Shown here: positions 6,844 to 51,389 of the stretch, in pieces
Position numbering within the stretch: the stretch's first letter is position 1
Layout: the number at the start of each line of letters is the position of its first letter
From: an uncultured bacterium
GTDB taxonomy: Bacteria; Chloroflexota; UBA5177; JANWHV01
Length of the DNA: 64,000 bases
Direction: 5' to 3'
NCBI GenBank assembly: GCA_963827235.1
Contig: CAWHAE010000009.1
Location: forward strand, 736,001 to 800,000
The notes under the pieces: model-generated
Seen by the model: the letters and a program-made list of their open reading frames with translations, nothing else
Databases searched by the model: none
What the model was told of the DNA's origin: nothing
Position numbers and translations under genes: made by a program

Positions 6844-6957
6844 AGCATAACAAACCAATATGACCGTTGCATGACAACATTGTCATTGTCCTGTCATAAA
6901 TGGATCACCTTTGTGTCATTGAGAGGTCATAGGTTAGTCATCGACGGTACTTATGCT
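6844..6957. promoter_or_regulatory. divergent promoters with an OmpR/PhoB-type direct-repeat array
   Basis: + strand GTCAT at 6882, 6893, (ATCAC 6904), 6915, 6926, 6937, then 10 bp, TATGCT 6952-6957; - strand GTCAT at 6875-6871 and 6864-6860, then 10 bp, TATGCT 6849-6844. Confidence 0.8.
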
Positions 6958-7142
6958 AAAGAGGTACCGATAGGGATGCTGCACGCACGCCACCAAACCT
7001 CTGGCCCGGCGGCTCATGGCAGCATCCGGTGGGTTCAGCCACCGCCTGGATCGGGCGTCGGCCGGCGGCGTTTATCTCATTGACCGGCGAGCCGAGGCGC
7101 AGGGAAACTCAACTGAAAGGTTCACGAGAAAGGGCAGCACGT

Positions 7143-8243
7143 ATGGCCAGGGGATTGACATCGCTTGCCGCGGCCGCGCTGATCGTCGCGGGAGGCATCG
7201 GTGACCATATTCTGACAAGCAGTTCATCCAATCAGCCTGTGGCTGCATTGGCGTCCGTGGCTGCACAGCAGTCCGGCGCGCAAACCGCTGCGGTGACATC
7301 GCAGTCGCTCGACGCGGCGACGGAGCATGCTTTCTCGGTCGCCAGCCCCTCGGTCGTATTTGTGAACAATGTCGGCATCGGCAGCGGCTCGGGCGTGATC
7401 TACGACAAGACCGGCGACATCGTCACCAACGCCCACGTGGTCGAGAGCGCGCAGAGTCTCACGGTGACGCTCTCCACCGGGAAAACCTATTCAGCCCGCG
7501 TGGTCGGCAGTGATACCAAGGATGACCTGGCGGTCATCCACATCAACGCCTCCAACCTTCCGGCCGCGCATTTCGCCAGTGCCGGGTCGTTCCAAGTTGC
7601 CCAGATGGTCTTGGCAATCGGTAACCCCCTTGACCTCCAGCAGAGCGTGACGTTCGGCCTGATTAGCGCCCTTGACCGCACCGTCCTGGAATCTGCCAGC
7701 ACCGGCGCCTACCTCCCCGACGCGATACAGACCTCCGCGCCGATCAACCCCGGCAATTCCGGTGGTGCCCTTGTCACCCTTGATGGCTCGGTGGTGGGCA
7801 TTCCTACCCTGGAGGCCGTCGATCCGCAGAACAACAACGGCGGCGCCGCGCAGGGTATTGGATTCGCCGTGCCAAGCACGCGCATTACCGCTATCGCACA
7901 CCAGCTCGTCGCCTATGGCCGCGTCGTGCATTCCGGGCGGGCCTATCTCGGCGTGAGCTCGGCGGACAGCAGCAGCGCCAGCGGTTACTCAATGTTCGGC
8001 CAGCAGAGCACGGTGAGCGGTGCACTGGTGACCACGGTCGCCGACGGCAGTCCTGCCGCTCAGGCCGGCCTGCAGCAGTACGATGTAATCACGGCCGTGA
8101 ATGGCAAGACCATCAGCGGCAGCGATGACCTGCTGACGGCGCTCGCGCATGCCAAGCCAAACCAGACAATTACACTCAGCGTCAACCGCAATGGGCAGAG
8201 CCTGACCCTCAAGGTGAAGCTCGGCGAGCTGACAGTCTCATAA
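7143..8243 (+). CDS. htrA: HtrA/DegP-family serine protease with one PDZ domain
   Basis: TNAHVV, DDLAVI and INPGNSGG catalytic triad; C-terminal PDZ (AYLGV...GSPAAQAGL); N-terminal hydrophobic anchor. Confidence 0.92.
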   Translation: MARGLTSLAAAALIVAGGIGDHILTSSSSNQPVAALASVAAQQSGAQTAAVTSQSLDAATEHAFSVASPSVVFVNNVGIGSGSGVIYDKTGDIVTNAHVVESAQSLTVTLSTGKTYSARVVGSDTKDDLAVIHINASNLPAAHFASAGSFQVAQMVLAIGNPLDLQQSVTFGLISALDRTVLESASTGAYLPDAIQTSAPINPGNSGGALVTLDGSVVGIPTLEAVDPQNNNGGAAQGIGFAVPSTRITAIAHQLVAYGRVVHSGRAYLGVSSADSSSASGYSMFGQQSTVSGALVTTVADGSPAAQAGLQQYDVITAVNGKTISGSDDLLTALAHAKPNQTITLSVNRNGQSLTLKVKLGELTVS

Positions 8244-8318
8244 CCTGCATTCCACCCGCGGCGTCCGCGAGGCAAACCCCACCTTGCGCTTGCGGACGCC
8301 GCACTTCCTGAGAGATCC

Positions 8319-8356
8319 AAGGCTGCCGAGGTAACTCCCCCTCGGCAGCCTTTTTC
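8319..8356 (+). terminator. intrinsic terminator of htrA, preceded by a second hairpin at 8258-8302
   Basis: AAGGCTGCCGAG...CTCGGCAGCCTT stem followed by a T run. Confidence 0.8.
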
Positions 8357-8668
8357 TGTCTTGCGGTGCCGTGCCCTTCTCGACGGTCCGCGGCCTGGCT
8401 CGAGACGGCGCGGTATGGCCTGATCGGCCCGGCCGTGTTTTCCACAGGCACGTGCTACTCGCATTACACCCGGCGCGACGGAACCGGCTCCATGACTTTC
8501 TTCACTGCCGTGGAATTCGGTCATTTGCTACGCTTGCCGATGGGCACCCTGTTCTGCAGGCGAACGACTGAAACGGTGCCGGCCAGGCGTCACATCCCGG
8601 GCGACGGCGGTGCTTGGCGTAGAGAGATGCTACGACTCGGGGATCAGAGGATGCACGGGGAGGCTGCG

Positions 8669-9421
8669 TTGGCTACTGAGCTGATCATCGAGGCCAGGGG
8701 CCTCAAGAAGACATATGTCACCGGCACGCAGCGCGTAGATGCCCTGCGCGGCATCGATTTCGCGGTGCGCCGGGGCGAGATGGTCTCGATCATGGGCCCG
8801 AGCGGATGCGGCAAGACGACGCTGCTCAACTGCCTCTCCGGGCTGGACGATTTCGACGCAGGCGACGTGAAGATCGCCGGCACCTCGTTGCGAGATATGA
8901 GCGACAACCAGAAGACGGACTATCGCGCGCGCAAGATGGGCTTCGTCTTTCAGGTGTATAACCTGCTGCCCGTGCTCAGCGCGGTCGAGAACGTCGAGCT
9001 GCCGCTACTGGTCAGCGGTATGCATCCGAAGCTGGCACGCAAGAAGGCGCAGGCGGCGCTGGAGAACGTGCAGCTCGGCAGCTGGGCGAATCACCGGCCG
9101 GCCGAGCTGTCGGGCGGACAGCGACAGCGCGTGACGGTCGCCCGCTCGCTGGTGAACGAACCGGCAATCGTCTGGGCAGACGAGCCAACGGGCGCGCTCG
9201 ACTCGGAGGCGGCGGGAGGCATCATGGATCTGATGTGCGATCTCAACAAGCTAAACAGCCAGACCTTCGTGGTGGTGACGCACGCCCTCGAGGTCGGCGA
9301 GCGCGCCGACCGCATCGTGCGGATGCGCGACGGGCACATCGACGATGCCGGACTTGGCCGTGGCGCCGAGGGTATGGGCGACCTGATAGACGCGCACCAG
9401 GCCGCCGCGTCGGCATCATAG
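8669..9421 (+). CDS. ABC transporter ATP-binding protein (LolD/MacB-like)
   Basis: [26 protein letters not shown]; TTG start inferred from a GGGAGG RBS. Confidence 0.9.
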
Positions 9422-9433
9422 GAGGCCACGGTA

Positions 9434-12400
9434 ATGAAGTCCCTTTTCGGCATCCCTATGGATACCGTGATGGCCTGGATGCTGGCCATCTTCATCGTGG
9501 TCACGCTGGTGGTCGTCATCCTGGCCTTGTTCAATCCACTGTTTTTCAAGATGGGGCTGCGCAACATTCCACGCCGCCGGGCCCAGACCATCCTGATCAT
9601 TGTCGGCCTGATGCTGAGCACGGTGATCGTGACCAGCGCCTTCGGTACCGGCGACACGCTCAGCTATTCCATTCGATCGTCGGTGGTAAGCGGCATGGGC
9701 TATGTGGACGAAGCGGTCTTCCACGTCTCGGGCTATCCCAGCGCGGACCAGGTGAATGGGGTGGGACCGTTCTCGTCCGCGGTCGCTCGCAGCATCCAGG
9801 CCAACGTCGCCGCCAACCCTTCCGCCGCCGCTTCCGTGCCCGCGCTGATATCCGCGGCGCCGCTCCAGGATCTGACGACCGGGCAGACAAAGGCCGCCGG
9901 CCAGATCGCGGCGTTCCCCGCCGCCTACCCGGCCAAGTTCGGACCTCTGACCACGACGGACGGCTCCGTCGTCACGCTCGGGCAGCTGGCCGCGAACGAG
10001 GTCTACATCAACGCGAAGGCGGCCGACGATCTGGGCGCGCACTCCGGCGACCTCGTGGTCGTCTACTTTCGTGGCCGGCTGCTCAAATTTCACGTCCGAG
10101 CCGCGCTGAAGGACGAGAACCTCGCTTCCGGCGCGCTCTCCAGTGGGGGCGGACAGTACCTCCCCAGCCTGCTTCTGCCGCTCGATCGCCTGGCAGGCAT
10201 GGCGCCCAACACTATTCTGGTCTCCAACAAAGGCGATGCTACCAGTGGAGCAGACAAGACCGATGACGTGACCGATCCGCTGCGCGCCCTGCTTGCCAAG
10301 CCCGGGGAAGTGGCTGCCGTCCAGTCGATGCTGGTGAGCACGGCCGGCAAGACGCAGCTCAAGAAGCTGATCGACGACCCGGCGAACGCCGGGAGCAAGA
10401 GCAAGCTGGTCGCGCTGCAGCAAGAAGTCGCCCGTGTGGGCCAGAGCGATCGGCTAAAGAGTCTGCTGAGCAATCCTTCGGTGGTCGGAGCGCTCAAGAG
10501 CATCAAGGATCCAGGGATCAGTCGTCCCCTGAACGACGACCTGGCGGCAATCAGCGACTACTCGGTCCAGAATGTGAAGCAGGACGGGTTGACCGCAGCG
10601 GATCTGATCGGCAGCGTGTTCGTCTCTATCTTCATCGTGTTCGGGCTCTTCTCCATCGCGGCCGGCATCATGCTGATCTTCTTGATCTTCGTCATGCTTG
10701 CGGCAGAGCGGCGTGAGGAGATGGGGATGGCGCGCGCGGTGGGCACCAAGCGCAGGCATCTCATCCAGCAATTCCTCTTCGAAGGCTATGTCTACAACCT
10801 AGCGGCGGCGTTGGTCGGCATTGTGCTCGGCGTGCTCGTCGGGCTGGGTATGGTGCGCATCATGGCCTACCTGCTCGGGAGCTACGATTTCACGCTGATC
10901 GGGCACATCGAGCCACGCAGCTTGGTCGTGGCGTTCTGCCTTGGCGCCTTGGTGACGTTTCTTACGGTCGTCGTCTCCTCGTACCGGGTGAGCCGTCTCA
11001 ACATCGTGGCCGCCATCCGCGATCTGCCCGAAGATTTCGGCACGAACCGCACGGTCGGCGATGCCTGGAGGAGATCGCTGAAACGGCTGCCGCGGCGGCC
11101 GAGCCAGATGGTCATCCGCTCGCTGCTGACGGCCATCGTTCTGCTCATTACCGTCTCCATGGCGGCGAGAGGCTCAATTGTCGCGGCAGCACTGCTGCTG
11201 CTCCTGCTTGCTGGGACTTACTTCTGGCCGCTCGTGGTGGCCTTTATGGCCCGGGGCCCCGTGCTCGCCGTCGCGGGCGTGGTGCTCATCGTGATTGGAT
11301 TCAACACCAACCAGTACTCATGGTTCGGCATCGGCACCTCGCTGACCTTGATAGGGATCGCCATGCTCATCCGCTGGGGCCTCAGGCTGTCGGCACTGCG
11401 AGATGCTCTCGGCGACCGGGTCGGCTATACTCTGGCCGGCCTGCTGCTGATGATTTTCTGGCTCTTACCGTTCGATTTCCTGACCAGCCTGGGCCTGCCC
11501 AACTTCGACGGCGGCATCGAGATGTTCTTCATTTCGGGCATCTTGCTCGTCATGGGCGGCGTGTGGACGGTGATGTTCAACGCCGACCTGATCGCGACCG
11601 GCCTGCAACGACTGTTCAGCTGGAACGGTTCGCTGGCGCCGGTGATGAAGATGGCCGTGACGTATCCCATGCAGCAGAAGTTCCGCACCGGGTTGACGCT
11701 GGCCATGTTCGCCCTGGTGATATTCACCCTGATGGTGATGTCGGTGCTTACTCGCAGCGCTTCAGGCAGCCTGGTGCTGAACCGCGATGACGGCGGCTAT
11801 CAGATATACGGCGCGGTGAGCGTGCAGAATACCGGCACGAACAACGCGGCCGTCATTGCCGCCAACCGCTCTCTGAGCAAGGCAGTAGCAGCCAGCGGCG
11901 GTATCGGCGTGGTGAGTGTAGGGGTACGCCAGCCCGGCCAGCAGGATCAGTCGTGGTCTGCGTACCTGGCCAACGTGCTCGACGACGCGTATCTCTCCTC
12001 GACGCGGTTTACCCTGCACGATCGGGCTGCCGGCTTCATCTCCGACGCGGCGGTCTGGCAGAAGCTGCGCACGCAGCCCGGCTACGCGGTGGTCGACGCT
12101 TCGCTGACCGAGAGCTCCGGCGGCTTCGGCAACACCTTCACGATCAAGGGTCTGAAGTACAAGGACACGACGTTCAGCCCGCAGACGATCGAGATCCGGG
12201 ACAATCGTTCGGGCACGACTACTCGCCTGCAGGTGATCGGCGTGCTCGACGCCAATGCGTCGAACCTGGGCGACTTCACAAGCGGCATCTACACGGGCGA
12301 ACGCTCGTTCATCTCAGCCGGCCTGGCCTACGTGCAGCCTACCGAGTACGTGTATCGCACGGCGGCAGGTGCGGACGTGCACGCCACCGCGCTGCTGCTG

Positions 12401-12880
12401 GGCAAGACGTTCCTGCGAGAAGGCTTCGACGTCAAGGAGGCGCAGAAGGAGTTCAATACCAACCAGGCGTTTGGCATTGGCATCGACAATCTTCTGGAAG
12501 GCTTCATGGCCCTGGGCCTGATCGTCGGCATTGCCGCCCTCGGCGTGATCGCCTTCCGCTCGGTCGTCGAGCGGCGCCAGCAGATCGGCATGATGCGTGC
12601 CATCGGTTTCCGGAAAGGTATGGTGCGGACGAGCTTCCTGATCGAATCCAGCTTCGTGGCTATTCTGGGCACGTTTCTCGGCGTGGTTCTCGGCCTCTGG
12701 CTGGCAAGGAACCTGGTGGCCAGCATCGCCAAGGACAATTCCAGCGTTGTCTTCGTCGTGCCCTGGCTGCAGATCGTGGTGATCATCGTAGTCGCGTACG
12801 TCGCCTCCCTGATCACCACGTTCGTGCCCGCATGGCAGGCGTCGCGGGTCTATCCGGCGGAAGCCCTGCGCTACGAGTAG
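9434..12880 (+). CDS. FtsX/MacB-type ABC permease with two permease halves
   Basis: Two ERRxxxGMxRAxG motifs, many TM helices, C-terminal PAWQASRVYPAEALRYE. Confidence 0.88.
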   Translation: MKSLFGIPMDTVMAWMLAIFIVVTLVVVILALFNPLFFKMGLRNIPRRRAQTILIIVGLMLSTVIVTSAFGTGDTLSYSIRSSVVSGMGYVDEAVFHVSGYPSADQVNGVGPFSSAVARSIQANVAANPSAAASVPALISAAPLQDLTTGQTKAAGQIAAFPAAYPAKFGPLTTTDGSVVTLGQLAANEVYINAKAADDLGAHSGDLVVVYFRGRLLKFHVRAALKDENLASGALSSGGGQYLPSLLLPLDRLAGMAPNTILVSNKGDATSGADKTDDVTDPLRALLAKPGEVAAVQSMLVSTAGKTQLKKLIDDPANAGSKSKLVALQQEVARVGQSDRLKSLLSNPSVVGALKSIKDPGISRPLNDDLAAISDYSVQNVKQDGLTAADLIGSVFVSIFIVFGLFSIAAGIMLIFLIFVMLAAERREEMGMARAVGTKRRHLIQQFLFEGYVYNLAAALVGIVLGVLVGLGMVRIMAYLLGSYDFTLIGHIEPRSLVVAFCLGALVTFLTVVVSSYRVSRLNIVAAIRDLPEDFGTNRTVGDAWRRSLKRLPRRPSQMVIRSLLTAIVLLITVSMAARGSIVAAALLLLLLAGTYFWPLVVAFMARGPVLAVAGVVLIVIGFNTNQYSWFGIGTSLTLIGIAMLIRWGLRLSALRDALGDRVGYTLAGLLLMIFWLLPFDFLTSLGLPNFDGGIEMFFISGILLVMGGVWTVMFNADLIATGLQRLFSWNGSLAPVMKMAVTYPMQQKFRTGLTLAMFALVIFTLMVMSVLTRSASGSLVLNRDDGGYQIYGAVSVQNTGTNNAAVIAANRSLSKAVAASGGIGVVSVGVRQPGQQDQSWSAYLANVLDDAYLSSTRFTLHDRAAGFISDAAVWQKLRTQPGYAVVDASLTESSGGFGNTFTIKGLKYKDTTFSPQTIEIRDNRSGTTTRLQVIGVLDANASNLGDFTSGIYTGERSFISAGLAYVQPTEYVYRTAAGADVHATALLLGKTFLREGFDVKEAQKEFNTNQAFGIGIDNLLEGFMALGLIVGIAALGVIAFRSVVERRQQIGMMRAIGFRKGMVRTSFLIESSFVAILGTFLGVVLGLWLARNLVASIAKDNSSVVFVVPWLQIVVIIVVAYVASLITTFVPAWQASRVYPAEALRYE

Positions 12881-12899
12881 CAGTCCGCGGGCACTAACA

Positions 12900-12938
12900 C
12901 ACAAGACCTCCAGGCATTTGAGCCGGAGGTCTTGTGTT
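12900..12938. terminator. probable bidirectional terminator
   Basis: CACAAGACCTCC...GGAGGTCTTGTG stem between convergent genes. Confidence 0.7.
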
Positions 12939-12961
12939 GCTGTTGTCGCGCAACGTATAGG

Positions 12962-13384
12962 TCACGACTGCCGCGTCTTCTTCTCCTGCAGGCGCGCCCC
13001 GGTTGCGCGTTGAAAGGCGAGATCTTCGTTCAACCGGTAGTCGACGAGCGCCTTGATCAACAGTTGGTTGATGGAGCCCCGGCTGTTGAAGGCCTTGGTC
13101 CTCAACCACTCATAGAGCTCGTCGGTGAGATGCACGTTGAACTTCACGCTGCCGACCGTGGCAGCGGTCTGCTTGAGCACGAGCGGTGTCGTCGCGTCGT
13201 CCGACGCATCGTGCAGGGCCCTAATCGCTTTGAGCACCATGCTGTTCATACTGCAACGGTCGACAAATGCGCGGTAGCGAAGCCACTCATATTGCGCGGC
13301 CGGCAGCCGGCATTGCATGAACCTCGCTCCGTCCATGGCGGTAGGTGCTGCAACAGCCCGCTGAGTATCAATCATCTGCAACAC
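12962..13384 (-). CDS. hypothetical protein with two tandem ribbon-helix-helix (Arc-like) repeats
   Basis: RFMQCRLPAAQYEWLRYRAFVDRCSMNSMVLKAI and VKFNVHLTDELYEWLRTKAFNSRGSINQLLIKAL; AAGGAGG 8 nt before GTG at 13384. Confidence 0.65.
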   Translation of the reverse strand: MLQMIDTQRAVAAPTAMDGARFMQCRLPAAQYEWLRYRAFVDRCSMNSMVLKAIRALHDASDDATTPLVLKQTAATVGSVKFNVHLTDELYEWLRTKAFNSRGSINQLLIKALVDYRLNEDLAFQRATGARLQEKKTRQS

Positions 13385-13642
13385 GCGTGACGCCTCCTTG
13401 GTCATCCTCTTCATGACTCCAGATAGCCCCTCGGCATCTCGGCCGGGATATTCATCCCTACACATCTTGCTATCGGCAGCAGCGAGGCAAATCAGTAGAG
13501 CAATTTTCTCTTCAGGGCCAAACTCGTCGAACTGGACTGCAGAGAGAGGGTTTGCTACGATTGCCAGGATTGGGGCCACCCCGGCGCTGCTGGCCGGTAG
13601 GAGGCCGAGCGATCGACGGCGATCACCTGGAGGTCTGGAACG

Positions 13643-14914
13643 ATGACCCCGGTCGAAAAGGCTACCGCGCTCGATCAGAGCTCCGTGCTCGAGCTGGCTT
13701 TACGGCAGTTCGACGCCGCGGCCGACCATCTGCGGCTCGAGGCGCGTTACCGGCGCATCCTGCGCCAGTCGCGGCGCGAGCTGACCGTGACCTTCCCCGT
13801 GCGTATGCGCGACGATTCGTTCGCCATGTTCACCGGCTATCGCGTCCATCACAACATCGTGCGCGGCCCCGCATGCGGTGGCATTCGCTATCATCCGGAC
13901 CTCACCATCGACGCCGTGCGAGCGCTGGCTCTCTGGTCTACCTGGCGTGCTGCCCTGTTGCGCATACCATTCGGCGGCGCCTACGGCGGCGTGGTGTGCG
14001 ATCCGGCGTCCATGACGGAGGAGGAGCGCGAGAATCTGACCCGCCGCTTCACGACCGAGATCTCTATCCTGCTGGGGCCCGATCGCGACATCGCGTCGCC
14101 GGATCGCTCGACCGACGACCACGTGATGGGTTGGATGATGGACACCTACAGTATGCACCGGGGATTCTCCGTGCCGGCGGTCGTGACCGGAAAACCGGTC
14201 GCCATCGGCGGGTCGCGTGGATGGGCCGCTTCCAGCGGTCGGGGGACCGCGGTGCTGTGTCGCGAGCTCGCCAGACTGCGCGGGCTGGACGTGCAGAACA
14301 CGCGCGTTGCCCTGCAGGGCGCGGGGCCAATCGGCGCTTCGGCGGCGCGGGTGCTATTCGGTTGGGGTGCGCGGATCGTGGCGCTCGGCGACGGCCGGCA
14401 AGGCGTGTTCCAGAACAGCGGGCTGGAAGTGCCGGCCGTGCTGCGCTACTTCGACGAGCATGGATCGCTGCAGGGTTGCCCGTATGGATCGCCGGTAGCT
14501 GGCCCAACCCTGGCTCCAATGCCTTGCGACATCCTGGTGCTGAGCGGCTTCGAGCGCATCGACGAGCAAGCGGCGGCGGCGATGCAGGCAGGAGTGGTGG
14601 TAGAAGGAGCCTACGGCACGATCGCGCCGGAGATCGACCGCGTGCTCGAAGATCGGGGCATCGTGGTGATGCCCGACATACTCGGCGGATCCGGCGGTGC
14701 AGCGGCCTCCTACTTCGAATGGGTGCAGGATATCCAGGAGACGTTCTGGAGCGAGGACCAGATCAGCAGCCGGATCGAAGCGATGCTGCTGCGCGGGTTC
14801 GAGGACGTGTACGCGCTGCACCAGCGCGACGGCATCTCGCTGCGCCTTGCCGCTCACTGCCTGGCAGTCGGGCGCGTGGCCGAAGCGCACCGGCTGCGGG
14901 GACTCTATCCGTAG
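13643..14914 (+). CDS. Glu/Leu/Phe/Val dehydrogenase homolog lacking the conserved active-site lysines
   Basis: GYRVHHN, GGIRYHP, VVTGKP, PDILGGSGG, SYFEWVQD, RGLYP; conserved Lys replaced in GPAC-GG, TWR and GGAY-GG. Confidence 0.85.
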   Translation: MTPVEKATALDQSSVLELALRQFDAAADHLRLEARYRRILRQSRRELTVTFPVRMRDDSFAMFTGYRVHHNIVRGPACGGIRYHPDLTIDAVRALALWSTWRAALLRIPFGGAYGGVVCDPASMTEEERENLTRRFTTEISILLGPDRDIASPDRSTDDHVMGWMMDTYSMHRGFSVPAVVTGKPVAIGGSRGWAASSGRGTAVLCRELARLRGLDVQNTRVALQGAGPIGASAARVLFGWGARIVALGDGRQGVFQNSGLEVPAVLRYFDEHGSLQGCPYGSPVAGPTLAPMPCDILVLSGFERIDEQAAAAMQAGVVVEGAYGTIAPEIDRVLEDRGIVVMPDILGGSGGAAASYFEWVQDIQETFWSEDQISSRIEAMLLRGFEDVYALHQRDGISLRLAAHCLAVGRVAEAHRLRGLYP

Positions 14915-14916
14915 CC

Positions 14917-15192
14917 ATGGGCGTACAGGATTCCGGGCGATGGGTGCCGCTGACCTATTACTTGCGGTTGCAGCGCGGACGGCAACCGGCTGTCGAGATG
15001 ACCTTCCGGCAGGTCGAAGAGGTGCTTGGCGACGGCCTGCCGAAGCCGGCGCGCAAGCAGCCGGAGTGGTGGCGCAACGATGATGCCGTTCCCCAGGCCC
15101 GGGCCTGGATCGACGCCGGTTGGCGGGTGGATACCGTGGATCTACCGAACGAGCTCGTGACGTTCGTGCCGGCGGGCCTGGCGACGGCGTAG
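14917..15192 (+). CDS. small DUF7662-like domain protein
   Basis: PLTYYL...MTFRQVEEVLG.LP..A....WWRND...QARAWIDAGWRV..VDL....VTF pattern; starts 2 nt after the gdh-like stop. Confidence 0.65.
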   Translation: MGVQDSGRWVPLTYYLRLQRGRQPAVEMTFRQVEEVLGDGLPKPARKQPEWWRNDDAVPQARAWIDAGWRVDTVDLPNELVTFVPAGLATA

Positions 15193-15198
15193 TCGCCG

Positions 15199-40115: not shown

Positions 40116-40131
40116 GGAGCAGGGGACGGAA

Positions 40132-41289: not shown

Positions 41290-41329
41290 GCGAAGGCCGT
41301 CTACGGTCACTATCGTGGCATGCCGTGGA

Positions 41330-41374
41330 TTTAACACGCTCTTAAGGACTCCGGGAGGCGTCGCGGCGTACACT
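41330..41374 (+). promoter_or_regulatory. TTAA direct-repeat pair (11-bp pitch) and possible -10
   Basis: TTAA at 41331 and 41342 in a GC-rich background; TACACT at 41369. Confidence 0.4.
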
Positions 41375-42966: not shown

Positions 42967-43006
42967 GCACGCTGCCGGGAGCGCGTCGGGCCGAGCCTCG
43001 ATGCCT

Positions 43007-43061
43007 CTTAACGTACTCCTTACACAAGCTTAATCGAGGCTTAAGGGACCGATGCTACTGT
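43007..43061 (+). promoter_or_regulatory. CTTAA direct-repeat array and extended -10
   Basis: CTTAA at 43007, 43029, 43040 plus CTTAC at 43019; TGcTACTGT with the hexamer at 43056. Confidence 0.5.
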
Positions 43062-43269
43062 AGCTGGGGGATCCAGGGGTCGGAATCCCCCGCCACACCC
43101 GGCACATTGGTCGGCTACGGGATGCTTGCCGGCGACGGCACTTCCAGCTCGCCGCGGCTCTGCGATGTGCCGGCGCCCTCGACCGGCGCACGACGATCAC
43201 TCGTGGACGGGGTGGCGGCACGCCGGTTGCCGCCGTGTGCGGTCTGCCGCAGTAAGGAGAGTATCAGGG

Positions 43270-44618
43270 ATGGCCGATCTCAAGACACGTGGATCTCGCC
43301 TTCGGCTGGGTATCGCCGCCGTAGCATTGCCTGTCGCGGTGCTCGTATCATCGGTGCCGCCGCTGCAAGCGGCGTCCTCCCCGATCGTCATCGAGTTCTG
43401 GAATCCCACGAGCCCGGGACCGGGGAGCGTATCGGGCAACGCCATCAAGTACCTGGTCGATACCTTCAACAAGACCCATCCCGGCATCCTGGTCAAAGCC
43501 GACTACACGCCGACCGACAACAACTACGTGAAGTACACTACGGCCCTTACCTCCGGCAGCCCGCCGGATGCCATCATGACCTACGACTACTATCCGATGC
43601 CGATCTGGGCGGCGGATCACCTCATCCAACCTCTAGACAGCTACATTGCGCAGTATCACTTCAAGCTGCAGACCTACTTCGCCAATGTCTATGCCGGCAT
43701 GCGGTTCAACGGCCACATCTATGGCCTGCCGCAGCAGGTGGACGAGCCGTTGCTGGCGTGGAACAAGACGATGTTCAAGCAGGCAGGCCTCAACCCCGAC
43801 GTGCCGCCGCGGACCACGGATCAGCTCCTTCAGTACGCCATGAAGCTCACCAAGGTACAGAACGGGCAGATCACGCAGCTCGGCATGGCGCCCTCGGACT
43901 CGCAAGGCGACAGCGAGTGGATCTACTACTTCGGCGGCGGGCTCTTCGACCCGGCGAGCAAACAGATCACCGCCAATGCGGCGGCAAACATCAGCGCCTA
44001 CACGTGGCTGAAGAAGTTCTACGATGCGCTGGGCGGCTACGACAAGATCACTGCCTGGTACCAGGCCGCCAGCAAGGCGAACGATCCCTTCGTGTTGGGC
44101 AAGCAGGCCATGGAGCTGATGGGCGAATACCAGCCGTCGTACATGCCGATCCAGGCGCCCAACTGAAGTACGGGGTAGCGCCCGTTCCCACCGGACCGGG
44201 CGTTGCCTACGACAGTGTCACCGTGGCACCGGCCGGGAACTTCTTCGTGCTGCCCAACAACGCATCTCACCCCAAGGAAGCGCTGGAGTTCCTCACCTGG
44301 ATGGCCTCGCCGTTCGCAGTGAACTACTGGTGCGTCGTGGAAGGCAATCTCCCGCCTTCGGCCGGCGACGCCTTCGGGTCGGCCTTCTGGAACGCGGCAC
44401 CTAAGCTCCGCCCCTGGATTTCGGCGCTCAAGCAGGCAAAGACGGTTGCCGCCGTGCCTGCCATCTCCACCTTCAACTTTCTGTACAACACGCTGAACAC
44501 GGTCAGCCAGGAGATCCTCTACGGGCGGGTCTCGCCTTCGCAGGGTTTGAATCAGCTGCAGTCGGAAACGACGCAGAACGAGCGCCAGTTCACCTCGACA
44601 CATCCCGGGTGGCAGTGA
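43270..44618 (+). CDS. carbohydrate-type (CUT1) ABC substrate-binding protein, frameshift near 44162
   Basis: Signal peptide, FNKTHPGI, GHIYGLP, WNKTMFKQAGL; continues as LKYGVAPVP in the next frame. Confidence 0.85.
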
Positions 44619-44727
44619 AAGCCTTGCCCCGCGCTCGTTGCGCCCTTCGCCGCGACGGCCGCGGGGCGGCGCACTTTCCATGCGACCCGGGCGCCGCGTC
44701 TGAGCAGCGGCGAAGGATGATGTCGGC

Positions 44728-45608
44728 ATGTTGAGAAGCAGAGCTGCCAAGCGCAGGCTGAACGTGGCACTGTTCCTCGGCCCTGGGTCGATTGGTGTGC
44801 TGGCCTTCACCGTCTATCCCGTGATGGCTTCCCTGTACTACAGCTTCACGAATACAGTCTTGGCATGCCGCCGGTATGGATCGGTACCGCCAACTGGTCG
44901 GCGATGTTCAGCGATCCGCTCTTCGGCACCGCCCTGGGCAACACACATCTACTACACGGTGTGCGCCGTGCCGCTGCAGTTGGTCGATGGCGCTGCTCGT
45001 GGCGCTGACGCTGAACACCAAGCTGTTCGCTCGCGGCGTCTTCCGCACGGTAATCTATCTGCCCACCCTCGTACCCAGCGTGGCGAACGCCATTCTCTGG
45101 CTCGCCCTGTTTGATCCATTCGGCGGCCTGATCGACCGCATTCTCGGCGATGCTGCACCTGCCTCAGCCGCTCTGGCTTCAGTCGCCCACCGCGGCGATG
45201 CCGGCGCTCATACTGATGAGCACCTGGGGTACTGGGGGCACGATCGTGATTTTGCTCGCCGGTTTGCAGGACGTGCCGAAACACCTCTACGAACAGGGCA
45301 TGATCGATGGCGCGGGGGCGTTCCGGCTCTTCTGGCACGTCACGCTGCCCATCATCTCGCCGATCGTGCTGTTCAACGCGATCACCGGCATCATAGGCTC
45401 CATGCAGACGTTCGCCGAGCCGTACCTGATGACCCAGGGTGGCCCCATGAATGCAACGCTCCTCTACTCGCTCTATCTGTTCCAGAATGCCTTTCAGTAC
45501 CTCAACATGGGATACGCCTCGACCCTTGCCTGGTTCCTGTTCGCCATGATCTTCCTGCTTACTTTGCTCGCCCTGTGGGTATCAAGACGACTCGTCTATT
45601 ACCGTTGA
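44728..45608 (+). CDS. carbohydrate ABC permease, several frameshifts
   Basis: YPVMASLYYSFT, FRTVIYLP, LAGLQDVP..LYE...IDGA EAA loop, spread over three frames. Confidence 0.82.
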
Positions 45609-45727
45609 AACCAAGTGACGCCGGGATGCACATGTCGTGAAGTCGAACGGATGCCCCAGGAGTCGTGCTCGGCAACCCGCCGCGGCGGGTGCGCCGACTT
45701 GACGCGATCTGAGCTTGGGACGGGTTC

Positions 45728-46612
45728 ATGAGCTACGGGAGTGACGTTCAGGCGGCGGTGCTGGGTCGCTCTAGAAGCGGTCCTCGCAGGAGCCGCCGGC
45801 TGCGGCGGAGCCTGCTCACGGCGCTTGCCGTTCTTGCCTGTGCGCCGTTCGTGATTCCGCTGCTATGGATGGTGAGCGCCTCGCTCCTGCCCGAGGCAGA
45901 CGTGACGGCGGGCCTGGCACTGATTCCATATCCGCCGCAATGGCACAACTATCCGGACGCTCTGCAGTTCTTCCCTGCTTACCACTATCTGCTCAATACT
46001 CTGCAGATCGCCGTGCCTGCCACGCTGGGCACCGTGCTCAGCACATCCTGGATCGCCTACGGCTTCGCGAATCTGCAGTGGAAAGGCAGAGAGCCGGCGT
46101 TCCTCGTCGTGCTCGGACTGATGATGATCCCCAGCTGGGTGACGCTGATACCCCTGTACGTGGTCTTCGTCAAGATTCACTGGGTAAACACCTATCTACC
46201 GCTCATCGTGCCGAGCTGGTTCGGCGCCGGCTCGTTCTACATCTTCCTGTTCCGGCAGTTCTTTCTGCGCCAGCCAGCCGAGCTACTCGACGCCGCGCGC
46301 ATAGACGGCGCGTCCGAGCCGCGCATCTACTGGCAGATCGTGCTGCCGCTGGCCAAGCCCGCCGTGGCCGTAGCCGCGCTGTTCGCCCTGGTCGGCAACT
46401 GGACGGACTTCCTTGGCCCGCTCATCTATCTCAACGATCCGTCGAAGTACACGCTGATGCTCGGGCTCGCCTCCTACAAGGACGAGCACATGACCTTTCT
46501 CAACCTCATGATGGCCGCCAGCGCCACGGTCATCGCGCCCATCTTCATCCTGTTTCTCTTCATGCAGCGCTTCTTCCGCGAAGGTCTGCAGCTCACCGGG
46601 CTCGTCGCCTGA
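45728..46612 (+). CDS. carbohydrate ABC permease
   Basis: FLFRQFF...ELLDAARIDGA...LPLAKP, WTDFLGPLIYL. Confidence 0.92.
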   Translation: MSYGSDVQAAVLGRSRSGPRRSRRLRRSLLTALAVLACAPFVIPLLWMVSASLLPEADVTAGLALIPYPPQWHNYPDALQFFPAYHYLLNTLQIAVPATLGTVLSTSWIAYGFANLQWKGREPAFLVVLGLMMIPSWVTLIPLYVVFVKIHWVNTYLPLIVPSWFGAGSFYIFLFRQFFLRQPAELLDAARIDGASEPRIYWQIVLPLAKPAVAVAALFALVGNWTDFLGPLIYLNDPSKYTLMLGLASYKDEHMTFLNLMMAASATVIAPIFILFLFMQRFFREGLQLTGLVA

Positions 46613-46693
46613 GCACGCGACCCGATTCTTCGGCGCGATACCGGCGCGTCTATATGCGTCCTGCATGGGTCCGGGCGATGCTATAGTACGCGA

Positions 46694-47218
46694 ATGGGCG
46701 TGGGCATTCGGGACTACCGCAGCGGCGATCGCGCGCAGATCGTGGCGCTCTTCGAGCGGTTCTACGACGACCTGATCGTCCTCGATCACGAGCAGAGACT
46801 TCGCCGCCTGGCCGGGTACGGCGAGTTCATCGCGGACAAGACGGTCGCCGTGGTAGAGCAGCGGAACGGCGCGTTCTACGTCGCGGTCGACGGAGAGACG
46901 ATCGCCGGTTTCGTGGTCGGCGTCGTCCTCGAGCAGGACGAGGAGCAGTGGCTCGGCGTCATTCCGTCGCTCGTGGGCCGCATCACGGAGCTGTACGTCG
47001 ACGCAGCCTACCGCCGGCGGGGGCTGGCCACGCGGCTCATGCGTCTTGCCGAAAGCTACCTCGCCCGTCGCCGCTGCGACGCCGTCCGTGTGGAAGTCTT
47101 CGTGCCGAACGTGCCTGCCCGCATGCTGTACGCCGCGCTCGGCTACGTGGAGCGCGATATCGAGCTGTTCAAGCGCCTGCGACCGCCGGACGCACCCGGC
47201 GATCAGGTGCGAGCGTGA
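46694..47218 (+). CDS. GNAT acetyltransferase
   Basis: ELYVDAAYRRRGLATRLM; N..A..LYAALGY. Confidence 0.85.
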   Translation: MGVGIRDYRSGDRAQIVALFERFYDDLIVLDHEQRLRRLAGYGEFIADKTVAVVEQRNGAFYVAVDGETIAGFVVGVVLEQDEEQWLGVIPSLVGRITELYVDAAYRRRGLATRLMRLAESYLARRRCDAVRVEVFVPNVPARMLYAALGYVERDIELFKRLRPPDAPGDQVRA

Positions 47219-47261
47219 GCAGTCGGCGGCGCGGTGACGCGCATGCGCGGCACCGGCAGCG

Positions 47262-48629
47262 TCAATCTCCCAGGTTGACGATCAAGCACCTGCCGCAGAG
47301 CGGCACTCCGCCCCAGAGCGCGTATCGATGATCCAGCCCGTAGACACGCGGGTGGCCGCGGGAGTAGAAGGCTGCCCGAGCGGTGGTCCCATACGATTGG
47401 GCGACGAGGTACGTGGGCGTCGGTCCATTGTAGGGTGCGGTGCTCAGGATCTCGGTGACCTCCTTCCCCAGGGGCGGGCCGCTCGTGGTCGGGTCGACCA
47501 GGCCCTGCACGATGCAGCTGTCCACCGGCACCAGCGCTTCGCCCGCCACCAGGGAACCGGCAACCACACCGGCCGGGAGCGCGCTGCCCAGGAAGATGTC
47601 GGTGGTGACGATCAGCACGGCCGTCCGCGGGCGCCGGCGCGGCGCCAGGGCGTCGACCAGCCGCCCGCCCAGGATGCCGCAGGCGACGGCTGCCGAGAGA
47701 TACGCCGGCAGCGTCCAGTGCTCCATGCCGTTGACGAGTAGAAAGAAGGCAAAGGTACCCAGCCCGCTGAGGCCGAGCGCGATCAGCATGGTATCGCCGC
47801 GGCGCAATCCGAACGCGAGCGCGGCCAGGATGCCCACGCCAAAGACCACAAGCCCGAACGGCATGACGATACCTGCCTGCACGCCCAGAGGTATGCCTGA
47901 ATCTGATCCCAGAGAGCCATGCCGCTCGGCGCCTGGGCCTGTCCATGCGCGAGCTGGAACGACATCGTGACCCAGCCGTGCGTGGCATTCCAGAGCACAT
48001 TGGGCGCGAAGACCAGGGCGGCAACAGCCGCGGCGGCATACGGTGCCGGGCGACCGAGCCACCAGCGGCCGCGTGCCGTGGCCAGCATGGCCAGGAGAAT
48101 CGCCGGCAGGAGCAGCACGACCGTGTACTTACTCTCCAGACCGCAGCCAAACGCCAGCCCGCACAGCACCCATTCCCGATAGCGGCTCCCGGCCAGGGCG
48201 CGTTGCAGCGCGGCCAGCGTAGCCGCCCACCAGAACAAGGCCAGCCCGTCCGGCGTGGCCAGGGCACTCCTGGCGACGAAGGGCGGTCCGACGAGCACGA
48301 GCAATGCTACCAGCATGCCGCCGGACCGGCCGCCGGCGCGGCTTCCGAGGTCGTAGGCGAGCGCCACCAGAGCGATGCCGAATACCGCCCACCAGAAGCG
48401 CACCCAGAACTCCGAGGGGCTCCACAGGAGGGTGCTGCTACGGATCAGCCAGGCAATCCGGGGGGTGATCGTAGTAGCCGAACGCCAGATGCCGCGACCA
48501 GTCCCAGTAGTACGCCTCATCGGGCATCAGTCCGAAGGCACCTATCCAGGTGAGGCGCGACACGGCAGTAACGGCCAGCAATGCCGGGACCGGCCGCCGC
48601 GTGACGATCGTGCTGAGACGAGAGACCAT
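47262..48629 (-). CDS. ArnT/PMT-family (GT39/GT83-like) membrane glycosyltransferase, 2 frameshifts
   Basis: PDEAYYWDWSRHLAFGYYDHPP, TPDG, GLESKYT, PNVLWNA over three frames. Confidence 0.82.
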
Positions 48630-48855
48630 GGCACCGACGCGATCCCCCCGATTTCTCGAGACCGGCTCCGCGGCGCGCACGATGCATCGCCCGCTTGCGC
48701 TATACCAACTGTATCTATTCCTTCCCGCCAGCGGCAGCTCGTGTGCTATGCTGGGAGGCGAACGAGCCATGCCGCTCATGCATTCGCGGTCGGGCTCTAT
48801 CCGGCGATGCTTCGACACAGGGGTCTACTGATGGGCAGTATGTTGGCACGGACAA

Positions 48856-49238
48856 GCGAATCCGACCTCCGAAGCAGATCTCAACCTGGCAGCGGGCAAG
48901 GGCTGGTCCTATGCCCACGCCGGCGTAAGGAGTACGTGGTGCTTGATCCGTCCGGCCTGTATATGCGAGTGCCTCTGCGCGCCTGGCATCTGGTCGACGG
49001 GGAGTATCTGGAAGCGGTCGTGGCTGCCGAAGGTATCTGGTGGAGCCGGGAGCTTCCCCTGGGCATCGGCTTTCACGACGAGCAGGCAGCGGTATTCGAT
49101 CGCGCCGGCCGGCGCCAACTGCGGGAGGGTGAGATCTCAACCCACGTGGCTCGGCAGGAGGCCGGGGTGGCGGAGCTGCGGCGCCGCCTCGAGGAGCTCG
49201 AGCGGCGACAGGCTGCGCGTGTGGAGGCGAGCCGGTAG
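48856..49238 (+). pseudogene. 3' remnant of a Uma2 (DUF820) family endonuclease
   Basis: ANPTSEADL..GKGWSYAHAGV / EYVVLDP motif (with a 1-nt shift), coiled-coil tail; N-terminus missing. Confidence 0.6.
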
Positions 49239-49373
49239 CGCCGGTACCGTGGGCAGCCAAGCTTGTATGCTGGATTGCGGCAAGCCGCGGCTACTCGTAC
49301 CTTCTTGACGCACCGTCATCCACGGTATCGTCCCAGGCAGAAACGAGCGGTTGGGAAGCAAGAATAGCCAAGC

Positions 49374-51287
49374 ATGAGCCAACAGAACACCGGCGCTCAA
49401 GAGCGGGTGCCTGCCACCCAGCGGCCGGCGGTGAGCACGACGGCGCCGGGGAGTCTGCCGGCGGAGGCGCTTCGCGATCGCGCCGGCGCTCAGCGCTGGC
49501 AGTTGCGGCACGACAACGAGACCGATCCCCTGGGTCCGGCGCCGGGACAGGCAGTAGAAGTGCGGGCATCGTCGGGCGAGCGCCTGCCCGTGGGCCGGGC
49601 CTCCATCTTCTTTACCGTCGACGGCTCGAAACCGGCCATCGACTCCGCCGCCGTGCCGATGCGTCGCGCCGCGGTCGATTGGGACCGCGACGCCGGCTTC
49701 CTGACGCGCTGGCTCGGCATACTGCCGGCGCAGCCGGCCGGTACGATCGTACGCTACCGCATCGGCGCCTGGCGCCACGCCGGGGCCGGGTCCACCGCCG
49801 AGCCGGACTGGTGGGCCCAGGATGGGCAGGGATTCTGGTACAAGCACGCAGGCGACGCCGGCATCACCACGTTTGCCTACCGGGTGGAGACCGGCGAAGA
49901 AGCGTGTCCCGACTGGGCGCGCGATGCCGTGATCTACCAGATCTTTCTTGACCGCTTTCACCCGGGCACCACGGACGGAGCGTTTGCGGACAAGGCCGGC
50001 CCGCACGCCCTGCACGGCGGCACACTGGAGGGCGTGCGGCGAGCGCTCCCCTACCTGGAGGATCTCGGCATCACCTGCATCTGGCTCTCTCCCTTCTGCG
50101 CTTCCCCGTCGTATCACCGGTATGATGCCGCCGATCTCTACACCGTCGACCCCAATCTCGGCACGAACGAAGACATGCGCCGGCTCACCGGCGACGCCCA
50201 CGCCCGCGGCATGCGCGTGATGATGGATTTTGTGCCGGCGCATTGCTCGCGTCTGCACCCGGCCTTCGTGGAGGCGCAAAAGGACCGGTCGGCCGCCACC
50301 GCGAGCTGGTTCTATTTCACGGAGTGGCCTCGCGGCTACCGCTGCTTCCTCGATAGGTCGCCGTCGCTCCCCTCCTTCAACGGCGACGACGAGGGCGCTC
50401 GCCGATACCTGATTCATAATGCCCTGTACTGGGCCGGTGATTACGGCGTCGATGCGTTTCGTCTCGACCATGCCATCGGCTTGAGCATGGATTTCTGGGT
50501 CGCCTTCCGCGATGCCACGCGGTCCGCGCGGCCGGACATCTTCACGGTGGGAGAGGCGACCGACACGCCGGACAGCCTGCGCCGGTACCGCGGACGCCTG
50601 GATGCGATACTCGACTTTCCACTTGCTGCCATGCTCAGGGAGACCTTCAGCGGACCGGCCGGCGATGTGGCGGCTCTCGACGGCTTTCTCACCGCGTATC
50701 TCCAGTATCTGGCCGGTGGCCCGGCCGGCGTCGGATTCCTCGACAACCACGACATGAACCGCTTCCTCTTCCTGGCCAATGGAGACGTCGAGCGGCTCAA
50801 GGTCGCGGCACTCTGCCTGTTCACGCTGCCGGCCACGCCCGTCATCTACTACGGCACGGAGATCGCTCTGCCGCAGCTGCACGACATAGCGGCGCCCGGC
50901 TCGACCGGCGACGCGGAGGTGCGCACCGACATGCCGTGGAGCAAAGACCGCTGGAATCTCGGCGTCCACGCGAGCTTCCGCGACCTGGTCGCTCTGCGCC
51001 GCCGCTCCGAAGCGCTGCGGCGAGGGGCATGGCAATCCGCCTACGTGGGAGAAGAAACGCGGACATATGTCTATCGCCGAACCATTGTCGGCGATCCCCG
51101 CGCCGAGATGCTGATCGCCTTCAACATCGGCGATCGGCGGAGCGCGGCACCGCTCGGCACTGCCGGGCCATATCGGGTTGTCTACGCCACGCGCGACGCC
51201 GCAGCCGTGCGGCTGGACCAGGCTGCCGGCTCCGTGACACTGCCCCCCGTCTGCGGAGCAGTCCTGTCGGCCGCGACCATATCCTGA
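49374..51287 (+). CDS. GH13 alpha-amylase family (neopullulanase/cyclomaltodextrinase-like)
   Basis: YQIFLDRF, HRYD, DFVPAH, FRLDHA, VGEA, FLDNHD, IYYGTE. Confidence 0.9.
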   Translation: MSQQNTGAQERVPATQRPAVSTTAPGSLPAEALRDRAGAQRWQLRHDNETDPLGPAPGQAVEVRASSGERLPVGRASIFFTVDGSKPAIDSAAVPMRRAAVDWDRDAGFLTRWLGILPAQPAGTIVRYRIGAWRHAGAGSTAEPDWWAQDGQGFWYKHAGDAGITTFAYRVETGEEACPDWARDAVIYQIFLDRFHPGTTDGAFADKAGPHALHGGTLEGVRRALPYLEDLGITCIWLSPFCASPSYHRYDAADLYTVDPNLGTNEDMRRLTGDAHARGMRVMMDFVPAHCSRLHPAFVEAQKDRSAATASWFYFTEWPRGYRCFLDRSPSLPSFNGDDEGARRYLIHNALYWAGDYGVDAFRLDHAIGLSMDFWVAFRDATRSARPDIFTVGEATDTPDSLRRYRGRLDAILDFPLAAMLRETFSGPAGDVAALDGFLTAYLQYLAGGPAGVGFLDNHDMNRFLFLANGDVERLKVAALCLFTLPATPVIYYGTEIALPQLHDIAAPGSTGDAEVRTDMPWSKDRWNLGVHASFRDLVALRRRSEALRRGAWQSAYVGEETRTYVYRRTIVGDPRAEMLIAFNIGDRRSAAPLGTAGPYRVVYATRDAAAVRLDQAAGSVTLPPVCGAVLSAATIS

Positions 51288-51335
51288 CACGGCAGGCATG
51301 AGGTCCGGCTGAGCGGCCGACCGGCGCGGCCGTCC

Positions 51336-51389
51336 ATCATCTAACTGTCATTTTTGGGTCATAAGCCGATCATCGTGATGGCCTATGCT
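51336..51389 (+). promoter_or_regulatory. OmpR/PhoB-type repeat array and -10 of the apbE operon
   Basis: ATCAT 51336, GTCAT 51347, GTCAT 51358, ATCAT 51369, 10-bp gap, TATGCT 51384-51389. Confidence 0.75.

Follow-up and report, generated by a model that had tools for sequence, protein, structure and literature searches.

Background

CpxAR-degP, CiaRH-htrA and MprAB-pepD are envelope-stress two-component systems that control htrA-type proteases, and PhoB, an autoregulated protein, acts at Pho boxes, direct repeats of about 11-bp pitch that stand in place of the -35 element, with 10 bp left between the last repeat and the -10. Here, we describe a candidate regulon in an uncultured bacterium that recalls both kinds of system. 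Our starting point is a window of 64,000 nucleotides (G000:C9:736001-800000), in which tandem RTCAY units precede three transcription units, namely a regulator/sensor kinase operon, the divergent gene of an HtrA-type protease, and an operon that encodes a small protein, the flavin transferase ApbE and an MsrQ-like membrane heme-b protein. The source assembly (G000) comprises 7,984,468 bp in 21 contigs with 65% G+C and is rated 95.9% complete with 9% contamination. It was compared with four genomes of the same genus (G001, G002, G003 and G004).

Several bodies of published work bear on this locus. According to passages in PMC11195947, the CusR box AAAATGACAAnnTTGTCATTTT lies between the divergent cusRS and cusCFBA, and its core TGACAAnnTTGTCAT also occurs at pcoE. 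CusSR and its sister system HprSR (YedVW) induce hiuH-msrPQ, as stated in PMC9302797, so that pairing this regulator clade with MsrQ-type proteins has a precedent. For flavinylation, Meheust et al. (2021, eLife, PMC8238504) report 1797 MsrQ-like clusters in 1468 genomes, in which apbE accompanies a PF01794-type membrane heme protein; the passages of that paper bearing on these clusters describe no regulator for them, the sole regulatory statement being Fur repression of PepSY-like clusters. The motif that ApbE modifies resembles [S/T]GA[S/T], and FMN_red proteins are known that carry it on an unstructured extension at the C-terminus, according to passages in PMC11334425. Among the literature passages considered, we found no link between CssRS/CutRS-type systems and ApbE or MsrQ-like modules, and the titles, abstracts and passages searched yielded no HtrA-controlling system with a TGTCAT direct-repeat site.

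Results

Three promoters share one architecture

In each of the three promoters, we found units that recur every 11 bp exactly and are followed, after a gap of 10 bp, by the same hexamer, TATGCT, as a putative -10 (Table 1). A preliminary description of the window had read all units as RTCAT, which stands at its coordinates for every unit except the third of the htrA array, where the word is ATCAC. Its proposal of one common architecture agrees with our direct reading of the sequence, and the architecture is kept upstream of the orthologues in G001, G002 and G004. The arrays toward htrA and toward the regulator lie back to back in one spacer and meet in a palindrome, whereas the array of the apbE operon is located about 44 kb away. 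When scanning for consensus -35/-10 pairs, we obtained no -35 partner for any of the three TATGCT hexamers. The conserved sequences GTACCGAT (6964-6971) and GTGCCGAT (51396-51403) begin at the predicted starts of htrA and of the apbE operon, respectively.

Next, we compared these counts with chance expectation. RTCAT-N6-RTCAT-N10-TATGCT matches three times in the window, against a mean of 0.00 and a maximum of 0 in 100 dinucleotide-preserving shuffles. The genome-wide scan for the same pattern, which had been proposed as a check, returns the same three promoters, with three matches on both strands of 7,984,468 bp in a genome holding 38 RTCAT-N6-RTCAT pairs and 1547 copies of TATGCT. Across the genome, rows of three RTCAY units occur 19 times at a spacing of N6, compared with 0-3 times at each other spacing from N2 to N11, and the reversed-word control yields 0-1. 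Similarly, RTCAY-N6-RTCAY-Nx-TANNNT has 17 matches when x is 10 but 0-2 for any other value from 5 to 15, so that the 10-bp gap to a -10-like hexamer is a genome-wide rule, beyond a coincidence of three sites. This strict pattern, RTCAY-N6-RTCAY-N10-TANNNT, has 15, 7, 7 and 10 matches in the four same-genus genomes, where the backwards control yields 1, 0, 0 and 0. Loosening it to NTCAY-N6-NTCAY-N10-TANNNT brings the number in G000 to 27.

The arrays are conserved in related genomes

Upon comparison with the relatives, we observe that synteny is complete in G001, with a trpB-like gene, the kinase, the regulator and the divergent htrA, and apbE 48 kb on. In the alignment of htrA upstream regions from G000, G001, G002 and G004, the columns of the units are invariant or near-invariant and TATGCT is kept, whereas the spacers vary; the array has six units in G001, five to six in G002 and three to four in G004. 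The two regulator-side units, N10 and the -10 are present in G001, G002 and G004, and the apbE array is kept in G001 and G002 with diverged spacers. The junction palindrome reads ATGACAATCTTGTCAT in G001 and ATGACAGTCTTGTCAT in G002. The gene order in G004 is regulator-kinase-htrA, all in one direction. In G002, a single contig of 5853 bp carries htrA on the - strand, an array, the intact regulator and kinase, a further array, and the small protein, apbE and the MsrQ-like gene. The earlier view that gene order alone would not reveal the link thus fails in G002, in which the three units are contiguous, each with its own array. Looking for the motif and for the linkage of two-component system, htrA and apbE in relatives, as had also been suggested, found the architecture kept upstream of the orthologues in same-genus genomes.

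We also examined htrA loci beyond the genus, counting arrays of at least three units. Such an array lies upstream of htrA in 6 of the 20 loci, including that of G000 itself; beyond the genus, it is found only at L017 and L018. A regulator match falls within 10 of the 19 htrA loci other than the window's own, loci from other families of the class among them, with flanks that extend only 1.5 kb or to the contig end. Eight further htrA loci of the class have a divergent adjoining orthologue of the regulator, at 52-60% identity. Read by eye, class-level htrA spacers hold CTCAT, TCTCAT or TCACAT-like units at 11-bp pitch, followed in several cases by a 10-bp gap and CATGCT or CATGTT. The recognition helix is ANVVDATIRRLRK in the genus regulators, whose sites have GTCAT units, and SNVVDTYIHYLRD in the class-level htrA-adjacent regulators, whose units have diverged. 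Motif and recognition helix thus change together, as would be expected if the neighbouring regulator binds, kin not being independent samples.

The leaders themselves show some shared features. Those of htrA and apbE both open with GTRCCGAT 6 nt past TATGCT, and the GTRCC at the leader start is kept in G001, G002 and G004. Each leader folds into a 5' hairpin, and in G002 one pair of the apbE hairpin has changed in a compensatory manner. The fold energies are unexceptional (z = -1.71 and, for the apbE leader, -1.28), and searching both promoter and leader regions against Rfam at a permissive threshold gave 0 matches.

The nearest known box is that of CusR

The preliminary description had compared the units with the Pho box. 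We find that the nearest known box is instead the CusR box: its core TGACAAnnTTGTCAT stands unaltered at 6872-6886 and in G001, and G002 departs from it at one position. The cusR-cusC spacer of E. coli MG1655 reads ATGAC-N6-GTCAT-N6-GTCAC at 11-bp pitch (L124:3505-3535). Its third unit, GTCAC, lies 11 bp nearer cusC, beyond the published palindrome.

Phosphate genes of G000 are preceded by another repeat. The only pstSCAB-phoU cluster (C10:492273-496878) has four TTAAC-type units at 11-bp pitch in front of it, and the same type of repeat is found upstream of a metallophosphoesterase, a Tat-signal enzyme and a binding protein; this repeat is probably the true Pho box of the organism. Among the sites examined, no RTCAY site lies upstream of recognisable phosphate genes. 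The earlier statement that none of the targets is a phosphate gene is thus borne out, with the motif absent upstream of pst/pho, where the TTAAC-type repeats sit. We rejected a Pho regulon, since pstS and the other candidates carry TTAAC-type repeats and no RTCAY. The TTAAC-type sites are at G000:C10:497040-497320, C9:447405-447430, C9:1156241-1156252 and C16:479999-480024. Two-unit TTAAC-type pairs are also present in the window, at about 41331-41347 and 43028-43044 (G000:C9:777331, 777345 and 779044).

The regulator, the kinase and HtrA

The regulator adjoining htrA had been placed in the OmpR/PhoB family, and its Response_reg and Trans_reg_C matches as well as its family scores confirm this. 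The receiver domain (PF00072) scores 103.7 bits over residues 4-112 of the first reading-frame piece. The Trans_reg_C domain (PF00486) is split by a frameshift, the first piece matching profile positions 3-22 and the second positions 23-77 (61.5 bits), and is continuous in the G001 regulator; the break near 6311 separates the receiver-linker part from the recognition-helix part. When scoring the intact G001 regulator against family models, the best was TIGR01387, the heavy-metal regulator subfamily, with 249.8 bits, followed by RppA (227.2, cut-off 250), CusR PRK09836 (220.3, cut-off 420) and PhoB (208), with HprR also among them. The regulator is 46% identical to E. coli CusR over its full length.

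For the kinase, TIGR01386 gave 191.2 bits, below the cut-off of 292.55, in an alignment confined to residues 222-441, the cytoplasmic part. HtrA scored 264.8 bits with TIGR02037, below the cut-off of 416.2, and a broad contig search with it returned distant relatives only, at 33-43% identity (Firmicutes, Acidobacteriota, Acidimicrobiia, Dehalococcoidales and others). The identities first given to the regulator, the kinase, HtrA and ApbE all agree with their domain matches, the frames of the first two being broken. Downstream of htrA and in the same direction are a MacB-type ABC ATPase and an FtsX-family permease of 1148 amino acids (aa) (window 8366-12880), and these genes have no match of at least 60% in the syntenic G001 stretch.

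The genome-wide set of sites

A regulon of three promoters had been proposed. Those three remain, but the set is larger, with about 15 or more promoters in the genome. The 17 strict matches in G000 lie upstream of genes, save one internal to the htrA array and one gene-internal site. The genes that follow them include a second HtrA, a second ApbE, and several redox and secreted proteins (Table 1). We found no P-type ATPase, RND pump or multicopper oxidase among the genes following sites; an HlyD/CusB-like fusion protein, an ABC ATPase and sulfocyanin, a copper protein, do follow them. In the relatives, we looked at 30 of the 39 loci with strict-pattern matches, the other nine belonging to G001 and G004. 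Recurring downstream genes in these 30 loci encode DUF5666 proteins (G001, G002), ferric reductase (G003, G004), FMN_bind-ApbE (G001), Rieske...FMN_bind (G004) and TauE (G001), as well as the regulators themselves.

Paralogous systems are also present. In G003 and G004, a paralogous regulator, 66% identical, is divergent from DoxX-Rieske with back-to-back arrays between them. G000 has an intact regulator-kinase paralogue pair at C16:660000-662000 and an orphan kinase paralogue within the redox cluster of contig C12. A second hub of the regulon, with four sites in 6.4 kb, is found at L089 (G000:C16:776500-788500), where the sites precede a receiver-only protein, the second ApbE, a 735-aa secreted repeat protein and an ABC ATPase. 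At L001:2338-3197 (G000:C16:867838-868750), a three-unit array with N10 and TATGCG lies before a 124-aa anchored Ser/Gly-rich protein. Convergent with the latter is a 112-aa regulator fragment (C16:868361-868750), the DNA-binding half, which is 86-95% identical to the window regulator.

The apbE operon and its small protein

The 206-aa membrane protein encoded by the third gene of the operon was assigned through its homologues. Its own Pfam match is a weak one to PF01292, below the cut-off, and PF01794 was not matched directly. Its homologues, at 54-73% identity, carry PF01794 and bear source names of ferric or iron reductase, and many of their sources are Chloroflexi/Chloroflexota or Ktedonobacteraceae records, one ground for calling the lineage Chloroflexota-like; the nearest Atlas cluster is also PF01794, with a score of 0.90. 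A BLASTP comparison with the C12 ferric-reductase protein returned nothing significant (E = 1.2). Judged from the homologues, the earlier label of cytochrome b is right as to a membrane heme-b protein, which is more exactly described as ferric-reductase/MsrQ-like.

The small protein matches no Pfam family, and the window apbE operon has no PF04205 FMN_bind gene, so it offers no FMN_bind substrate with [S/T]GA[S/T]. When comparing 11 apbE loci (L029-L039), we observed a protein of 92-148 aa directly upstream of apbE in eight, one of the other three having no upstream sequence. All eight proteins have a hydrophobic stretch, a Ser/Gly/Gln-rich tail and a C-terminus of the form SG[T/A/G/L]S (AGSGTS, AGSGTS, AGSGAS, MGSGGS, TQSGLS, TSSGGS, TSSGGS and TSSGAS). 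The end is SGTS in the window and SGAS in G002. Its likeness to the ApbE motif makes the small protein a candidate domain-less ApbE substrate, which we offer as a lead. The loci other than the window with such a protein are L030, L031, L032, L033, L035, L036 and L037.

Table 1. Features of the window and genes found downstream of array sites elsewhere in G000. Positions are those of the window unless a contig is given.
Feature	Position	Strand	Details
Six-unit array toward htrA	6882..6941	+	GTCAT, GTCAT, ATCAC, GTCAT, GTCAT, GTCAT; starts 6882, 6893, 6904, 6915, 6926, 6937; 11-bp pitch
Putative -10 TATGCT of htrA promoter	6952..6957	+	10-bp gap 6942-6951 after last unit; predicted start near 6964
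Two GTCAT units toward regulator	6860..6875	-	+ strand ATGAC at 6860-6864 and 6871-6875; 11-bp pitch
Putative -10 TATGCT of regulator/kinase promoter	6844..6849	-	+ strand AGCATA; 10-bp gap 6850-6859; predicted start near 6837
Regulator start codon	6811-6809	-
Junction palindrome ATGACAACATTGTCAT	6871..6886	both	Leftward and rightward arrays join in phase
Four-unit array before small protein-apbE-MsrQ-like operon	51336..51373	+	ATCAT 51336, GTCAT 51347, GTCAT 51358, ATCAT 51369
Putative -10 TATGCT of apbE operon	51384..51389	+	10-bp gap 51374-51383; predicted start near 51396
apbE leader hairpin	51398..51441	+	Arms GCCGATGCAGG and CCTGCATCGGC
OmpR-family response regulator, CusR/CopR-like clade	6139..6811	-	Response_reg and Trans_reg_C; frame broken near 6311
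Sensor histidine kinase	4704..6041	-	HisKA and HATPase_c; type with two transmembrane segments and an extracytoplasmic domain; three 1-bp insertions
HtrA/DegP-type serine protease	7029..8243	+	Trypsin_2 98.4 bits, PDZ_2 69.5 bits; N-terminal membrane anchor; likely start ATG 7140
Small protein, 132 aa	51470..51868	+	Hydrophobic anchor (by eye), Ser/Gly/Gln-rich linker, C-terminus ...AGSGTS; candidate ApbE substrate
ApbE-family FAD:protein FMN transferase	51885..52829	+	PF02424, 181.4 bits
MsrQ-like/ferric-reductase-type membrane heme-b protein, 206 aa	52901..53521	+	Assigned via homologues
Second HtrA	C14		Downstream of strict-pattern site
Second ApbE	C16		Downstream of site
Two operons of Ferric_reduct/FAD_binding_8/NAD_binding_1 (MsrQ-like) and FMN_bind	C12		SGAT read from translations; PF01794 matched directly
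Rieske and sulfocyanin operon	C12		Divergent from one of the two ferric-reductase/FMN_bind operons
DoxX-Rieske fusion	C12		Downstream of site
DUF5666 protein and two other secreted repeat proteins			Downstream of sites
PMT_2/YkcB_C glycosyltransferase (GT-C)			Downstream of site
1469-aa HlyD-like protein			Downstream of site
Peptidase_C39_2 protein; ABC ATPase; receiver-only protein; TauE; small unknown proteins			Downstream of sites

Discussion

A predicted envelope-stress/redox regulon

From the observed architecture with its statistics and conservation, together with the families of the genes and the agreement with the CusR box, we consider it likely that the RTCAY repeats are binding sites of the phosphorylated OmpR/PhoB-family, CusR/CopR/HprR-like regulator adjoining htrA, and that this regulator activates an envelope-stress/redox regulon. 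From the sequence, we infer that the regulator binds, that it activates instead of repressing, and where the transcripts start. The paralogue in relatives that has the same recognition helix probably binds the RTCAY repeats too, and the arrays are therefore best regarded as serving a small group of sister systems in common, in the way of CusR and HprR. In the proposed mechanism, dimers of the phosphorylated regulator would line up head-to-tail along the 11-bp units. The proximal two of these units, at about -38 to -23, would stand in for the -35 as they do with PhoB, and since they occupy the -35 position 10 bp before the -10, the regulator would recruit RNA polymerase to promoters that have no -35. 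The two leftward units would give positive autoregulation of the regulator/kinase operon, and the additional units of the longer arrays, six units in all at htrA and four at apbE, would give cooperative, graded occupancy. Activation would extend to about a dozen further promoters, of exported or membrane proteins. The outcome would be a coordinated envelope response that combines quality control by HtrA with delivery of flavin/heme electrons outward; the presence among the targets of exported proteases, flavin transferases, heme/flavin/Rieske/copper carriers and genes for envelope glycosylation and export points to such a pairing. The gene content allows no more than a guess at the signal, which may be envelope oxidative, metal or folding stress. 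We did not adopt copper sensing, which the likeness to CusR suggests, because the sensor domain matches no CusS model and there is no copper pump among the targets. Nor did we adopt disulfide sensing of the CutS kind, described in passages of PMC12802291, because the four kinase cysteines of G000 and G001 are absent in G002.

Points against this reading, and other explanations

A number of findings weigh against this reading. Compared with G001, G000 has five 1-bp insertions within 1.24 kb, near 5079, 5195, 5555, 6075 and 6311, and four of the five break frames, three in the kinase (near 5079, 5195 and 5555) and one in the regulator (near 6311). Judging by its reading frames, the adjacent regulator-kinase system as assembled cannot make full-length proteins, and with these breaks autoactivation may not apply to G000 as assembled. 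The best regulator score, 249.8 bits, is below the TIGR01387 cut-off of 279.2, Pfam and subfamily profile searches gave no family model that covers the kinase sensor domain, and four extracytoplasmic cysteines present in the kinases of G000 and G001 are absent in G002. The recognition helix of the G003/G004 paralogue is identical to that of the htrA-linked regulator, and G000 itself has an intact paralogue at C16:661302-661967, 61-73% identical, with two helix differences; on their sequence, the arrays cannot be assigned to one protein. Of the 17 strict matches, one is inside a gene and one within the htrA array. When scanning upstream of apbE for arrays of at least three units, none was present in 10 of the 15 loci, including every locus outside the genus, and the related genomes are not independent samples.

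The frame breaks also raise the possibility that the htrA-adjacent pair are recent pseudogenes, with the arrays in G000 served only by a paralogous system, either the C16:660000-662000 pair or another CusR-like regulator. This is unlikely in our judgement, although the clustering of the insertions between 5079 and 6311, four of them frame-breaking, speaks for it, as does the lack of frame breaks in the other long syntenic genes of the window (1257, 1001, 841, 512 and 467 aa). It is also favoured by paralogues whose helix is identical (G003, G004) or near-identical (G000 C16), and by the orphan kinase in the C12 redox cluster. Against this, the broken genes contain no stop codons and show almost no excess substitution on the G000 branch, with residue changes unique to G000, G001 and G002 numbering 2, 1 and 19 in the regulator and 21, 11 and 105 in the kinase. 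The DNA-binding part of the G000 regulator agrees with G001 in 55 of 56 residues and is identical to G002. The regulator is intact in G001 (224 aa) and G002, and so is the kinase (456 aa in G001, 434 aa in G002). Five insertions, zero deletions and the lack of decay would be explained by a local consensus error no less well than by very recent inactivation. A 156-aa open reading frame of G001, with a multi-frame match to window 13278-13737, lies over the junction of two real genes and was taken as spurious.

We give a much lower probability to the view that the regulator binds the arrays but represses, occluding -35 to -23 until a signal displaces it. The sites do overlap the core promoter, and some OmpR-family regulators repress in this manner, for instance CutR at htrB according to passages in PMC12802291. 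However, there is no -35 element to occlude, and the arrays run upstream, away from the promoter, for up to six units. The fixed 10-bp gap at 17 promoters is, moreover, the activation geometry of the PhoB type. It is hardly credible that the arrays serve as Pho boxes for a PhoB orthologue whose gene lies elsewhere, with the targets forming a phosphate-starvation regulon: the TGTCAT unit and the 10-bp gap do recall the E. coli Pho box, and PhoB scores 208 bits, but TTAAC-type units rather than RTCAY precede pstSCAB-phoU and the other candidates, and no RTCAY site precedes phosphate genes. Finally, non-regulatory repeats, whether arising by chance, from a mobile-element remnant or as replication iterons, are contradicted by the sequence and have a probability close to nil. 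We found no point in support of them, and they stand against the shuffle and spacing controls, the conservation at orthologous promoters with diverged spacers, the fixed distance to a -10-like hexamer and the orientation toward genes. Activation by the regulator adjoining htrA thus remains the explanation that we prefer, as a well-supported prediction of an envelope-stress/redox regulon, in which the mechanism is expected, whereas the content of the regulon and the SGxS-ended small protein are unexpected.

Significance

A further step can be proposed tentatively, and we hold it with low confidence. HtrA may be co-induced with the flavin/heme conduits as an envelope protein-repair/redox response, in which the small protein would be a domain-less ApbE substrate, a tethered flavin that receives electrons from the MsrQ-like heme protein and passes them on to targets beyond the membrane. 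If true, this would give MsrQ-like flavinylated systems a physiological role, stress repair and not iron uptake, together with their first regulator, and the small protein would rank as the smallest flavinylation substrate in nature. Common as they are, MsrQ-like flavinylated systems have no established function, and the predicted regulon supplies a testable hypothesis for them, namely an envelope stress response. It also provides a defined DNA motif that can be used for regulon prediction in an uncultured Chloroflexota-like lineage. Finally, it offers a natural example of a CusR-type half-site set in PhoB-like tandem arrays, which bears on how OmpR-family regulators re-use one recognition helix across promoter grammars.

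Comparison with known systems

The promoters resemble the class II promoters of PhoB, with repeats of about 11 bp that end 10 bp before the -10 and no recognisable -35. They differ from PhoB in that the regulon is another one, the pst promoter here uses TTAAC-type repeats, and PhoB is not the best family of the regulator. In its layout, the system is like the envelope- or secretion-stress systems CpxAR, CiaRH and MprAB and like CssRS and CutRS (Streptomyces, Bacillus), with a membrane kinase, an OmpR-family regulator, a predicted HtrA target and predicted autoregulation. The units here are RTCAY, unlike the CutR motif TAWATAAA given in passages of PMC12802291. The apbE operon agrees with the MsrQ-like clusters of Meheust et al. 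in having apbE and, judged from the homologues of the third protein, an MsrQ-like membrane component, and departs from them in having a small anchored SGxS-ended protein and no FMN_bind gene.

The closest comparison is with CusR. Where CusR has a single palindrome, the sites described here are long rows of 2 to 6 direct repeats next to the -10. They precede genes of HtrA proteases and of ApbE/FMN_bind/ferric-reductase modules, and we saw no copper pump or multicopper oxidase among the genes that follow them. The regulator scores below the TIGR01387 cut-off, the kinase sensor matches no CusS model, and the host is Chloroflexota-like. As in E. coli CusSR, on the other hand, the operon of an OmpR-family regulator is separated from a divergent target by a spacer that holds a CusR-type box. 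CusSR and HprSR, moreover, induce msrPQ, and the third gene of the apbE operon, judged from homologues of its product, encodes a membrane protein of the MsrQ family. CusSR and HprSR are cross-talking sisters with common boxes, and two regulators with one recognition helix may do likewise here.

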